Of a DNA stretch of 64,000 nt, positions 35,841 through 41,789 are shown piece by piece. The DNA is from a virus, in IMG/VR virus record IMGVR_UViG_3300016469_000277, positions 32,001-96,000 of that record; one strand, 5' to 3'. The notes beneath the pieces are model-generated. The model did not search any database. It saw only the letters and a list, made by a program, of their open reading frames with translations, and was not told the origin of the DNA. Numbering within the stretch: position 1 is the stretch's first letter; the number at the start of each line of letters is the position of its first letter. A program made the position numbers and the translations under genes.

Positions 35841-37330
35841 AATTTTCTTTGATAGATTTTCTTAAATTAGAATGAAACTCGTTAAACTCGTCTGCTGGTA
35901 TTTCTGTTGTAGGATTGATTCTTGCAAACCAATCTTCAAACCTTTCAGCTTCTTTAACTTCCGGCTCTTGAAACCAAGAGTTAATTCTGTTCATTAATGT
36001 TTTCATATTATTGTGTAGGATCGTCCAAATCTCCATAACCATCATCTCCTGATTCGTAGTGAGGACCTTCTGAATCTTTGTTTACAGTAACCTCTTTACT
36101 GTAACTTTCAGGAAAGTACTCTTGGTACCAATCATCGAAACATCCATAAAGAAATCCTGTATTAGGGTGCGCTAAACGGCTAGACTCAAAGCAACTATCT
36201 AAGACTCTTTTTTCTTGATCTACTAAGACCGATTCTAAAAGAGGAAGAGTTTCTGCTTCTCCTTTTCTAATTACTTCCATTATTATTTGAACTGGTGTTT
36301 TCATGTTATTCAGTTTGTGTTGTTAATACCCATTTAAGAATGTTTACTTGACTTGTTAGTTTTTTTAATTCACTATGTGCAGCATCTACTTCTCCGTAAT
36401 CAGCTTGTCCCCAAAGTTTTTTGTCTTCACGATACCTCTCACAAGCAGATTTAGCCCAGTCTTTTACTCCTTCGAGTTCAAGTTCTAATTCTTCTAGTCT
36501 GTGTTCAATTTCTTCTTGAGATTTCATTAGTTAATACAAATTGCGTTAGGTTTAAGTATCTCTGAATTAACAGGTTCTGGATAATTACTTTCTGGATCAT
36601 CTACTGTGATTATTCCTGGAGTAAAGTTTACTTGATGATAGTGATTACCTTCATCGTCTGCTGAGTAAATTACAGGAAATTCTGCATATTCAGGATGTTT
36701 TTCTAAAAGTGTATTTAAGCACTTTGCGTAATGTTTTAGTGTCATTGTTTTGAATTTAGAAATTTTTGTAATAGTTCTTTTGTTGAGTAAATACCTGATT
36801 TATATAACCAATCTCCATCATTTTTAAAATGAGCATTTTCTGCCACAAACTGAGCAAAGTCAATCATATCTTTTTCCGTAAAGTTTTTTTCTAAACAATC
36901 AGGATAAGTACAGTTATTGTTTAAACTGCAGCTTTCTCCTTCTTTTTTTATCCCGTTTTTAGAACAGGTTGTCATTTTAATCTATCTTAAAGTGTAAACT
37001 TGCTTGTCTTATTCTGTCATCTTCTTCTTCCATTTCTATTATATCGACTAAAGAGATTGTATGTCCGTTTATAGTCATTGGGAAGAGTTTAGAGACAGTT
37101 TCGTAACAATAATTATCAAATCCTCCATGTCTAAAGTAAAGATGCTCTAATCCGCTAGAAATGCCTGTATTGATATAGGGCATATCTGTATACTTTAGTT
37201 GTCTGTGTTCCTTAAAATAATTGTGGTCAGCTTCCATTTCGATACTTATGCCTTTATCTAGTAAGATTTTGGCTAATTCTTTAACAGTATCTAGTAGAGG
37301 GTCTGCGAGTATTTGTTCTTTGAATGTCAT
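35803..37330 (-). other. six small hypothetical CDSs
   Basis: Coupled ORFs 35803, 36008, 36306, 36527, 36742 and 36977. Confidence 0.65.
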
Positions 37331-37779
37331 TTTGATTTTGATTTTCTTAATACGATTGAGACACGGGGCTGTTCTGCCTCAAAATAATGTTCCCATGTAT
37401 ATCTGAGATCTTCAGACATAATCGCTAAAGAGTAACGAGGAACAAGAAACTCTTTTATTTCTCCGTCTTTTCTAAATTTAAGAACTCCGTCACTTAAAAG
37501 ACTAATAATATAAATAGCATTACCTCCGTCAGGTGCGTCTTTATGCCAGTCTATTCTTTGTCCTTCTTTATACTCATTGATTGTTACAGAGTCAAAAGTT
37601 AAATCAAACTTAAATATTTCTGGAATATGATAAGATACATGATGAGTTCCATAAGGTCTTCTAGCTCCATACCTTATTATTTGATTTCTATCTTTACCTT
37701 TAGCTCTTTTAGAGGGAATTAAAGCCAAGACTTTTTCTTCAAAGTCCTGGTCTACATAATTTTCAATTACTTCTAACAT
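37327..37779 (-). CDS. AlkB-like 2OG-Fe(II) dioxygenase
   Basis: INEY..G..IDWHKD, ISL, WEH, RVSIVLR. Confidence 0.8.
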   Translation of the reverse strand: MLEVIENYVDQDFEEKVLALIPSKRAKGKDRNQIIRYGARRPYGTHHVSYHIPEIFKFDLTFDSVTINEYKEGQRIDWHKDAPDGGNAIYIISLLSDGVLKFRKDGEIKEFLVPRYSLAIMSEDLRYTWEHYFEAEQPRVSIVLRKSKSK

Positions 37780-37790
37780 AATATTTTAAT

Positions 37791-37860
37791 TTTTAACAAA
37801 GTGCAAGCGCAATTTTAAAATCAAACAATGGTAACAACTGCGCCTGCACGACTGTTAGCG
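37791..37860 (-). repeat. attC-like palindromic site 2
   Basis: CGCTAAC...GTGCAGGCGCAGTT/AATTGCGCTTGCAC...GTTAAAA. Confidence 0.6.
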
Positions 37861-37887
37861 GCAATAAATTAAAATTGCCTACGCACA

Positions 37888-38040
37888 TCAACTACCTGCA
37901 TCTCCAAGAAATTCATCCCCATAATCTCTTTGTGCCATAAATCGCTCAATTGCTTCATCGGTATTATCGAAAATATACCAAGCATCTTCACCGCAATCTC
38001 TTGCCCAATCAATAAATTCTTCTAATAATTCTTTTTCCAT
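37888..38040 (-). CDS. 50-aa acidic cassette ORF
   Basis: MEKELLEEFIDWARDCG...DAGS, read manually between two attC-like sites. Confidence 0.65.
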   Translation of the reverse strand: MEKELLEEFIDWARDCGEDAWYIFDNTDEAIERFMAQRDYGDEFLGDAGS

Positions 38041-38064
38041 CGCTCTAAATTTTAATTTACGTGC

Positions 38065-38159
38065 CTATAACAGCGGTTTAGCGCAATGCCGCTGGACAGG
38101 CACAGGTTTAATTTAAAGTTTATCAATGCGGCACTGCACCAAGCCGCAAAACGTTATGT
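38065..38159 (-). repeat. attC-like palindromic site 1
   Basis: ACATAAC...GCGGCTTGGTGCAGTGCCGC/GCGGCATTGCGCTAAACCGC...GTTATAG. Confidence 0.65.
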
Positions 38160-38291
38160 AAACCTACCCATTTACAATTTGTCAAAATTTGACAATTCAT
38201 AAGTTGACAATTTCTTTTTTTCATAGTTAAAATAAAAAGTTAGGAGGAGATTTCTCTCCCCCTAACTAAAACCCTAAACAATAGTCCTTAA

Positions 38292-38819
38292 TTAGAATAC
38301 TGAGTTAGCTGCAACAGGTGTAGCGGATTCTTTCAAATCTGCTGTCATATCCTTAAGAGGAATATGAGCTACTAGAATATCATCGCTGGTGCCGTCATTT
38401 GTTACTTGAACAAATTCTTGCTTGCGATAAATATTCTCTCCATCAGCAGTAACTAGTTCTACTCCGTCTTTTCCAGACTTCTTAATAGAAGCATAGTTTT
38501 CTTTAGCCCAAGCTTCGTCAGTAGATTCTACGATACGAATTCTAACAGGGAAAGGAAGAATTTCGCTAAGATTAATGTTAATCGGAGTTACATTCTCATA
38601 ACCTTCTTTCAAGTTAGCAGTATCAATACCAATTGACTTAGCTACATCTTCTGTAAAAGATACAGTTACTACACGACGATTCTTTTGGCCCATCATAAAG
38701 CCAATAAGATTAGCTGCTTCGCCTTTTTGCTCCATCATTACACTGATAGGACGAGTGGTTGCATTAGGATTGATCCAAGCTGCAATAGCGATTACCGGAT
38801 TTTCGTTTTTGATGTTCAT
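38292..38819 (-). CDS. hypothetical protein
   Basis: 175-aa ORF followed by a terminator hairpin (38240-38266). Confidence 0.75.
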   Translation of the reverse strand: MNIKNENPVIAIAAWINPNATTRPISVMMEQKGEAANLIGFMMGQKNRRVVTVSFTEDVAKSIGIDTANLKEGYENVTPININLSEILPFPVRIRIVESTDEAWAKENYASIKKSGKDGVELVTADGENIYRKQEFVQVTNDGTSDDILVAHIPLKDMTADLKESATPVAANSVF

Positions 38820-38855
38820 TTTCTTTTTAATTTAATTTTGTTTAGTTTGATTAGT

Positions 38856-39906
38856 TTATATTATGTTTTGAATTGTAACAGGTTTGTTGTAATCCGTAAA
38901 TATGTAACCAGTCTTTGAAAAATCAGCAAAGTTTTCTGCTTCAAAATTCCATTGATTTTCTGTTAGAGGTAAACCATAGTTTTCTCTTACCATGTAAAAA
39001 ATGTGACCATTATCACTTTGCATTAATTTAGGGTAATCAACAGTTAGATTTACCCCTTCTTCTTTTTTAATTATTATTGCCATTACTTTCTTTTGATTGG
39101 TTTTCTTCTTTTTGAGTTAGTTGTTTTGGGTTTTTTCCGTAAAGTTGCTGTTGATTTCTTTTTAGGTAACTCTGGTCTTGTCTCTGGTGCATAATTAGGT
39201 TCTTCTTTAGGACAATCTCTAAAAATAGTAGATTTACCTGCTTTAATTCTGCACATCAAAGGGGCTACAATACAAATGTCAAAAATAAAAATAACTAAAG
39301 CTAAGCAAATAGCCGAAGTACAGATAAATTGCCAAACTCCTGTATTATCAAGAGAGGTGTTAAGAACATACCCTACACCTAGTAGAGTAGCGATTGTTGC
39401 GAGGATTCTAATTCCCCACATTAAGATGTTATTTGGTATCATTGTTTTTAATTAGGTTAAAGTTAAAGTTCCCCCTCAGCACTACCTGGTCGGGGGAACT
39501 ATGAAACGCATTAGTAAGGAAGCCTCCCTGCAATTTGTTTAGTTAAATCATTATACTTTAGAAGTATACGATTCATCCACAACAGTTTTGCATCAGATTT
39601 AAACTCTTTGATGAAGTTTTCAATCTGTTTAGCTTCTTCGAATTTAGCTTCAAAGCCATCTTTGTCTCCTTTCATTATAAGCTCAAAAGCTTCTTTTTTA
39701 AGTTGACTAATCTGACTTTCCAGCTTAGAGAATGTCTCCCGAAGATTAAGTTCAATTGTTTCTTCAAGAGTCTTTACGAACAAAGAGGTATGTTTTGGAA
39801 GAACATACTCATCTTGTACTCTTACAGGCTTCTCTTTAGGAGGTGTGTAAGAGCCTACTTTTTCTGCTGAATACAGCTTTCCGTTTTGTCTGAATGTCTT
39901 TTTCAT
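38856..39906 (-). other. three hypothetical CDSs (38856-39083; 39083-39442 two-TM with basic tail; 39511-39906)
   Basis: ORF track; last start revised to lie downstream of the tRNA-like element. Confidence 0.65.
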
Positions 39907-39925: not shown

Positions 39926-40032
39926 TGCGAGTGACAGGATTCGAACCTGTACGTAGGACCTACAATTAGATGATCGGCTATCCTACAGTAGTGATGATAA
40001 TACTTGCGTCTAACCAATTCCGCCACACTCGC
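39926..40032 (-). ncRNA. tRNA-like RNA A (Leu-type D/T arms, non-canonical 55-nt centre)
   Basis: Acceptor GCGAGTG/CACTCGC+A; GGCGGAATTGGTTAGACGC; ACAGG-TTCGAAT-CCTGT; no canonical 7-nt anticodon loop. Confidence 0.8.
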
Positions 40033-40987: not shown

Positions 40988-41119
40988 TAGTCAGGACAGG
41001 ATTCGAACCTGTATGATGTACTGCTTCACTTCCAAAACGGTTGATTCCCTTGTATGGACGCATCGACACATCTCCTATTTAATCTTATAGTAGCGTCTAA
41101 CCAATTCCGCCACCTGACT
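40988..41119 (-). ncRNA. tRNA-like RNA B (Leu-type D/T arms, non-canonical 80-nt centre)
   Basis: Acceptor AGTCAGG/CCTGACT+A; D and T arms identical to RNA A. Confidence 0.8.
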
Positions 41120-41691: not shown

Positions 41692-41713
41692 GGTTTTTTA
41701 GTTTAATTTTTAG

Positions 41714-41789
41714 TAGCCGGAAGGGGAATCGAACCACCTATCTCCAAGATGAAATCTTGTTGTCCTAAAATCCATTAGACGATCCGGCC
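41714..41789 (-). tRNA. tRNA-Glu(TTC), atypical
   Basis: GGCCGGA/TCCGGCT acceptor; GTCTAATGG...AGGAC; loop AT-TTC-AT; TTCGATT T-loop; mismatches in anticodon and T stems. Confidence 0.7.

Follow-up and report, generated by a model that had tools for sequence, protein, structure and literature searches.

A putative one-cassette, integrase-less integron-type array in a large tailed phage of Bacteroidota

Results

Organization of the locus

The DNA analyzed here, referred to as the window, is a stretch of 64,000 nucleotides from the genome of a large tailed phage of Bacteroidota, which encodes terminase, portal, capsid and DNA polymerase (108 kb; 94% complete by CheckV; 34.5% GC). Around the locus, all genes lie on the − strand (Table 1). 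A short ORF of 50 amino acids is flanked by two GC-rich palindromes bounded by TAAC and GTTA, site A upstream and site B downstream, which are about 210 nt apart and belong to the few GC-rich spots of the genome. This arrangement had been put forward in the original prediction, and the coordinates and folds of both sites bear it out. As also predicted, a gene for an AlkB-like oxygenase begins right after the second site, with a leader of only 14 nt between site B and its ATG.

Table 1. Features at and next to the locus, listed in the 5′ to 3′ direction of the − strand (positions are those of the window).
Feature	Position	Strand	Remarks
175-aa gene	38819..38292	−	Upstream neighbor
Intrinsic terminator of the 175-aa gene	38267..38238	−	13-bp stem, then T-run; upstream limit of the module
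Platform, 62 nt, with TTGTCAA/TTGACAA repeats, ends in TAGGTTTACATAAC	38218..38157	−	Conserved in viral contigs
Site A, 89 nt	38156..38068	−	TAAC 38156..38153, GTTA 38071..38068; R1 match
Putative mobile unit, 299 bp	38152..37854	−	From the G after the site A TAAC through right flank, leader, ORF and left flank to TAAC
Right-flank arm of the cassette inverted repeat (GTTATAGGCACGTAAATTAAAATT...)	38071..38046	−	Includes the AT-rich leader of the ORF
Leader of the 50-aa ORF, 27 nt	Between site A and the ORF	−	
50-aa ORF	38040..37888	−	Acidic protein
Left-flank arm of the cassette inverted repeat (...AATTTTAATTTATTGCCGCTAAC)	37879..37854	−	Fits the (a/c)TTGCnnnTAAC convention of other sites
Site B, 64 nt	37857..37794	−	TAAC 37857..37854, GTTA 37797..37794
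2OG-Fe(II) oxygenase (AlkB-like), 150 aa	37779..37327	−	Pfam PF13532, E 5e-8

The limits of the 299-bp unit were set by end pairing and by analogy with unit indels of Muminvirus phages, both described below. The outer flanks of the locus, left of site A and right of site B, have no pairing partner within 8 kb. No close relative of the AlkB-like gene was found among the viral contigs searched; it belongs either to the phage backbone or to an older insertion without a recognizable far boundary. A terminator-like hairpin with a weak T-run lies inside its first 20 codons (37725–37750, − strand). Elsewhere in the window, Rfam tRNA models match at 39926–40032 (107 nt) and 40988–41119 (132 nt), both on the − strand, next to a normal tRNA-Glu (41713–41789). 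ARAGORN calls neither of the two, which have the appearance of tRNA-like RNAs with large inserts.

Site A belongs to a family of folded, attC-type sites

The attC sites of integrons are imperfect palindromes of about 55–140 nt with the core boxes R″ (RYYYAAC) and R′ (GTTRRRY). What is conserved is their structure and not their sequence, and unpaired or extrahelical bases make one strand the active one. Sites A and B contain exact AAC and GTT cores, and their full 7-mers fit the degenerate consensus in part only. The site A fold consists of a 6-bp end helix, a 4-nt bulge on the 5′ arm only, 4 bp, a C·A mismatch, a GC-rich stem of 15 bp and a 35-nt loop. Compared with shuffled sequences, single-strand folding of the − strand gave z = −3.2 for site A and −2.2 for site B.

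A recurring element, co-oriented with the genes, was found in the flanks of homologs of the 50-aa ORF. It starts with TAACG, a 4–5-nt bulge on the 5′ arm only and a 4-bp helix, continues with an invariant C·A mismatch in GGCT/AACC, a variable stem of about 15 bp and a loop of 20–110 nt, and closes with a 3′ arm that ends in T-GTTA. We aligned 26 related phage sites and built the covariance model R1 from this alignment. Pair cells were paired in 93% of cases, compared with 70.5% in column shuffles (0/500 reached 93%) and 35–51% in slid controls, and double-sided changes were seen in 120 cells versus 36 expected. Two G·T pairs, the C·A mismatch and the one-sided bulge are conserved in the 26 sites. 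These non-Watson-Crick features render the fold specific to one strand.

R1 matched site A with 72.3 bits (E = 9.5e-14; 38064–38160, − strand) and had no other match, whether in the window or in the 108-kb genome; on its opposite (+) strand, site A scored 9.7 bits. Strand asymmetry and covariation are therefore features that site A has in common with attC, whereas its layout is unlike the classical one, in that a 4-nt bulge and a C·A mismatch replace the single extrahelical bases. By the measure of R1, site A is an attC-type folded site of a Bacteroidota integron family. Rfam gave no meaningful match in 37000–39000 at E ≤ 10.

A variant site (GGTAACGTTTGTCGCTTGTACTAATCGGC...GCCGATTAGTACAAACGATTGTTGCC) that ends in GTTG rather than GTTA lies about 100–190 nt upstream of the ORF homolog in contigs L005–L007 (117–309 kb). 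R1 misses this variant, so the family is probably broader than the model.

Site B and the platform resemble the two ends of an array

Site B folds into a GC-rich stem of 11 bp, including one G·T pair, with a 27-nt loop, and has the form TAAC-AGTC-GTGCAGGCGCA...TGCGCTTGCAC-TTT-GTTA. Its membership in the R1 family was ruled out by a score of 9.0 bits (E = 1.4). Hence, the claim that both palindromes are attC-like holds within R1 for site A and fails there for site B, which points instead to a second type of site in the same arrays. The exact arms of site B recur in 12 viral contigs, with variable flanks, and were absent from the 401 Flavobacteriaceae genomes searched. In the phage contigs, B-type sites occupy the same arrays and the same strand as R1 sites; they typically come last, and a terminator often lies after them. 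In most contigs, 7–8 of 9 positions of their left flank (range 2–8) pair with the flank to the right of the preceding site. On these sequence grounds, site B is a second attC-like type, so far seen in phage contigs only, that usually closes the array.

The 62-nt platform upstream of site A is about 90% identical in four other viral contigs (L154, L161, L162 and L164). In L154, L162 and L164 it precedes the first site of an array, and the identity stops exactly between TAAC and the following G (hereafter the TAAC-G boundary). The platform contains TTTG-N16-TAGGTTTA, which resembles the −33/−7 boxes of Bacteroidota promoters; the original prediction, which saw no −7 box, overlooked this pair. 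We regard the platform as the start of an array, possibly an attI-like junction combined with a promoter. With a platform, one cassette and a closing site, the window would thus hold a complete miniature array.

In contig L161 (8832–8868, − strand), the sequence after the platform (…TTACATCAC CCTT…) is not an R1 site, and the platform there may be an unoccupied or decayed array start.

The ends of the cassette pair with each other

In integron arrays, the ends of a cassette are complementary to each other and not to those of the neighbor, with the crossover inside the R box. The original prediction described such complementary ends at this locus. The 26 nt that start at the GTTA of site A are complementary to the 26 nt that end with the TAAC of site B, and show no match to the sequence on the right of site B (GTTAAAAATT...). 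When all GTTA..TAAC pairs 120–420 nt apart in the 64-kb window were scored by alignment, this pair ranked first of 1,117 (score 13; background mean 3.3, sd 1.9; next best 12), which confirms the prediction with the qualification that part of the long match is an AT-rich leader motif (TAAATTAAAATT) common before start codons in these phages. Ungapped pairing of the flanks that adjoin GTTA reaches only 4/9.

A leader motif, AAAATTAAAAT(T), stands directly before the ATG of many Muminvirus cassette genes (L014–L019, L023). In the window it occurs at 38059–38048 and, before the AlkB-like gene, at 37792–37780. Several units have their start codon and some 20 codons inside the loop and 3′ arm of the site, where at least two reading frames are used.

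We measured end pairing across eight phage arrays. On average, 7.17 of the 9 nt to the left of TAAC pair with the flank to the right of the preceding site (n = 30), compared with 3.00/9 for the site's own right flank and a background of 2.91. Thus, as in the arrays of integrons, every gene has an inverted repeat of its own around it. The same rule holds in bacterial arrays and for B-type sites.

An imperfect 24-nt inverted repeat around an ORF might also be left by a miniature transposon or homing unit with 24-bp terminal inverted repeats, inserted between two unrelated hairpins. However, the unit encodes neither a transposase nor a nuclease, there is no target-site duplication, and the repeat begins exactly at the GTTA and TAAC boxes of the two sites. 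Moreover, the bracket rule is common to dozens of genes, each with a repeat of its own, which fits cassettes and not one transposon family. We consider a transposon very improbable, and read the unit as a cassette.

A small acidic protein carried by cassettes in several phages

The 50-aa protein is strongly acidic (16 D/E and 4 K/R residues; pI 4.05). Homologs of 39–48 aa, which share the core ELLEEFIDWARDCGEDAWYIF, were found in 19 viral contigs (9–309 kb); in two cases the homolog is part of a longer, fused ORF. Since it has homologs at 19 viral loci, the ORF is a real gene. Searches for a function gave one sub-threshold match in Pfam and none in PHROGs or the ESM Atlas, and the protein was not found in four array-bearing bacterial genomes. 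It may serve as an accessory factor, possibly in anti-defence.

A blastn search of phage genomes with a 2.2-kb query from the locus returned a single match, 69 nt inside the 50-aa ORF, with 91% identity to 34 Flavobacterium siphophages of the genus Muminvirus. The ORF family is cassette-borne in Muminvirus and in another viral contig (L008). The site in front of the ORF varies between the phages that share it, so the ORF unit has not simply been moved intact.

Whole units are gained or lost at the TAAC box in Muminvirus

The genome of the Muminvirus phage mumin6-1 contains 11 R1 matches. All are co-oriented with the genes and confined to the leftward early arm (2.3–8.2 kb), a region of small ORFs and four genes for DNA methyltransferases. 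Whole units, of 476 bp and 288 bp, are present in some and missing from other near-identical genomes of this genus, and the cuts fall exactly at the TAAC-G boundary; the 60 nt to the left of the indel are identical and the flank to the right matches at 120/120 positions. Each unit has the composition G-site-GTTA-flank-gene-flank′-TAAC. This composition places the crossover box at the TAAC of the coding strand, that is, on the GTT side of the window's + strand. The predicted crossover in GTT therefore finds its counterpart in the bounded units of Muminvirus.

Shuffling of a cassette between the arrays of two Muminvirus contigs, L014 and L015, was considered and dropped: the units in question are identical at only 234/445 positions and are different units. 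They lie at different positions (L014 4545–4983; L015 5605–5956) and carry the same end tags, GTTATAACTCGTT...AATGAGTTATAAC; their ends may have been exchanged or may have converged.

For the phage under study, one relative was found in which to look for the predicted GTT-bounded indels, and it showed none. This relative, contig L022, was detected through the 175-aa gene, and one small ORF takes the place of a 2.2-kb block (38290..36045). As L022 is without the whole block, it offers no precise empty site for this locus, and no precise cassette indel, empty site or circle was seen in the comparison of this phage with L022. L022 does contain a strong R1 site (1768–1894, + strand; 93 bits) in which the 5′ box is TAAT rather than TAAC. 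The loop of this site encodes only a 21-codon ORF, and it looks like a decaying cassette site.

The decayed box in L022 would fit a reading in which the palindromes worked at the RNA level only, as mRNA stabilizers, processing sites, translation gates or weak terminators, and the locus were a fossil whose complementary ends have no meaning for mobility in this phage. The better-folding strand is indeed the mRNA-sense strand, TTTGTT follows site B, and the single R1 site of the genome would have no partner of its own family with which to recombine. Yet neither hairpin has a proper T-run, and a true terminator is found upstream. A role in RNA would also leave unexplained the pairing of ends across the gene, which in other arrays would cut into coding sequence, and the conservation of TAAC and GTTA from bacteria to phages. 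A role in RNA is in any case compatible with one in recombination. We therefore hold an RNA-only function to be quite unlikely and continue to read sites A and B as recombination sites.

Bacterial chromosomes carry large arrays of the same family beside a tyrosine recombinase

A strict pattern of the family was found at at least 120 places in species-representative genomes, and among the matches listed nearly all were in Bacteroidota and the length of the site was strikingly constant at about 126 nt. The attC repeats of Vibrio cholerae, which has a sedentary chromosomal integron, measure about 123–126 nt. In three of the four bacterial genomes checked, the array adjoins a gene for an Xer/IntI-like tyrosine recombinase; the search of Bacteroidota for IntI-like enzymes that the original prediction had proposed thus gave a positive answer. 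The complete chromosome of Bacteroidota bacterium SSA2 (CP058707.1) carries R1 sites, at least 150 of them and all on one strand, between ~3,486,000 and 3,982,500, an array of ~0.5 Mb or ~12% of the chromosome. Its best IntI-like gene (3,985,825–3,986,625) lies 3.3 kb beyond the last site. If confirmed, this array would be among the largest integron-type arrays known.

The arrays of Flavobacterium sedimenticola and F. qiangtangense abut an IntI-like gene. The F. sedimenticola enzyme (345 aa) passes the NCBIfam model NF040815, entitled ‘site-specific tyrosine recombinase/integron integrase’, with 228.5 bits (cut-off 220). With the integron-integrase model TIGR02249 it reached 202 bits, short of the required 265, and its sequence does not align over the IntI-specific stretch. 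The recombinase gene reads in the same direction as the cassettes, the first of which obeys the end-pairing rule.

In three bacterial arrays, genes lie opposite the TAACG strand (e.g. 3,269 aa vs. 359 aa, counting ORFs of at least 70 aa), so the TAACG strand corresponds to the bottom strand of attC. The aadA7 control in a study of phage attC sites gives the same TAAC-G reading on the bottom strand (PMC9892861). In the phages, the TAACG strand is the coding strand: the cassettes are flipped relative to the bacterial ones, with the site upstream of the gene. Given this orientation, phage cassettes cannot be plain copies of bacterial cassettes.

The phage itself has no integrase, in line with the original prediction, which noted none in view: no gene of the Phage_integrase family (PF00589) was found in its 108-kb, 94%-complete genome, and none is annotated in mumin6-1. 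The array-linked recombinase has relatives in 56 viral contigs, and in a few of these R1 sites lie beside the gene. Because the phage has no tyrosine recombinase, we infer that a host enzyme acts on its sites; a host or co-resident enzyme would be the most economical reading.

An unlikely alternative: stem-loop exchange without a site-specific enzyme

The PeSLs of T4-like phages are composites of a σ70 promoter and a terminator that are exchanged by homologous recombination (PMC2839356, PMC4122927). They are the nearest recombinase-free analog of our sites: in both cases, small accessory genes of hyperplastic regions lie between conserved stem-loops, at which the indels between close relatives have their breakpoints. 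By this precedent, the hairpins would be conserved expression signals before early genes, and ordinary or short-homology recombination would exchange the units between co-infecting phages with no site-specific enzyme. It would account for the position of the phage sites, upstream of genes and on the coding strand, and for loops in which the next gene often has its AT-rich leader, its ATG and its first codons. The conserved boxes of 12–13 nt (AAACCGNTGTTA, TAACG..GGCT) could act as microhomology, and a crossover inside such a box would yield the same pattern of end pairing, in keeping with what T4-like phages do with their PeSLs (PMC2839356, PMC4122927).

PeSLs, unlike the present sites, have no TAAC/GTTA boxes, no complementary ends for each cassette and no bacterial arrays beside a recombinase. 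Matches to σ70-like promoters occur here at chance level (6 vs. 5.8 expected), the hairpins are without T-runs, and the family is also found antisense to genes in bacterial arrays. Such genes are encoded on the opposite strand, which rules out the site as their leader. In addition, bacterial chromosomes contain huge arrays of this family, all on one strand and next to a tyrosine recombinase. The conservation of the wobble pairs, the mismatch and the one-sided bulge suggests that a folded single strand is what is recognized, and the indels end at one box only. We conclude that exchange of the PeSL type is unlikely and favor site-specific recombination of cassettes. A single-stranded DNA promoter (Frpo-like) was set aside, as the stems contain no Bacteroidota promoter boxes and the bacterial arrays adjoin a recombinase.

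Discussion

A candidate integron-type array and its proposed recombinase

We judge it likely, with a probability of roughly 0.7, that the locus is a one-cassette integron-type array without an integrase in a large Bacteroidota phage, and that a recombinase of the host type exchanges cassettes there at the TAAC-G boundary. Overall, the results support the cassette reading of the original prediction. The comparison with other phages and with bacterial chromosomes further suggests that recombination made the locus and can still act there.

In the mechanism that we envisage, sites A and B would fold as single-stranded hairpins, and their TAAC and GTTA ends would be the crossover boxes. Strand exchange at the TAAC-G boundary of the folding strand would be the work of a tyrosine recombinase similar to the Xer/IntI-like enzyme whose gene adjoins arrays in the chromosomes of Flavobacterium and other Bacteroidota. 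During infection, the host or a co-resident element would provide this recombinase. If the hairpin ends are crossover boxes for such an enzyme, the unit of site A, leader and 50-aa gene could leave as a circle and enter another array.

Comparison with known systems

Like those of chromosomal integrons, the sites are imperfect palindromes that end in AAC...GTT boxes, vary in their loops and have bases on one strand that are unpaired or bulged. They are similar within a genome, the ends of each cassette are complementary, and the Bacteroidota arrays, with sites of ~126 nt, consist of unrelated small genes beside a tyrosine recombinase. Unlike a chromosomal integron, this locus is one cassette in a phage, with no integrase, and the phage gene lies on the folding (bottom-like) strand with the site upstream. 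The partner enzyme in Bacteroidota also differs: it is Xer-like, falls short of TIGR02249 and reads in the direction of the cassettes. A complete integron comprises intI, with its IntI-specific domain, and attI, and this combination was not found in the phage. A CALIN comprises at least two close attC sites with no integrase; here, site A is backed by the covariance model, and site B is placed by its own recurrent family and by the flank rule.

Integrons have been listed for Bacteroidota (PMC8618304), and Qi et al. (2023) described CALINs in virulent phages, including the Polaribacter phage P12002L with two methyltransferases (PMC9892861). As in those phages, attC-like sites without an integrase lie between small genes and DNA methyltransferases, and one of the published phages infects a member of Flavobacteriia. 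IntI1 recombined five of the six phage attC sites tested, the exception being P12002L_attC1 (PMC9892861). A link to the published P12002L sites was considered and not retained, as R1 finds nothing in P12002L and the likeness to P12002L_attC1 is by eye only. The phage CALIN survey lists no Flavobacterium or crAss-like phage, and the platform, the closing B-type site and the flipped orientation of genes are not in that work (PMC9892861).

A possible shared integron of Bacteroidota phages

More tentatively, and at somewhat less than even odds, Bacteroidota phages of unrelated types (crAss-like phages, Muminvirus siphoviruses and others) may share a phage-adapted integron without an integrase. Its layout would consist of a portable TTGTCAA platform with a promoter, flipped cassettes and a closing site of the B type. 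The attC site upstream of each cassette would supply a leader or start codon, and Xer-like integron recombinases of the host would load and unload the arrays during infection. If so, accessory and anti-defence genes, among them those for methyltransferases and small acidic proteins, would be traded between such phages as on a common market, which may extend to the giant chromosomal arrays of their hosts.

The Bacteroidota integrons and the orphan attC clusters of virulent phages are already published, and the system as such is barely covered in the literature; the present locus is a small, minimal, single-cassette example of a widespread system. It links phages to the very large and little-studied chromosomal integrons of Bacteroidota with their Xer-like enzyme, and the idea can be tested in cultured pairs of Flavobacterium phage and host. 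The Muminvirus paper reports that variable methyltransferases track plating efficiency, with a host-dependent drop on LMO6, and mentions neither hairpins nor cassettes (PMC7077304). Should host integron recombinases act on these sites, they would give lytic Bacteroidota phages, crAss-like ones included, a precise means of acquiring single accessory genes without an enzyme of their own. This would help to explain the hyperplastic early regions of Bacteroidota phages and the variable sets of methyltransferases in Muminvirus that are tied to plating efficiency (PMC7077304).
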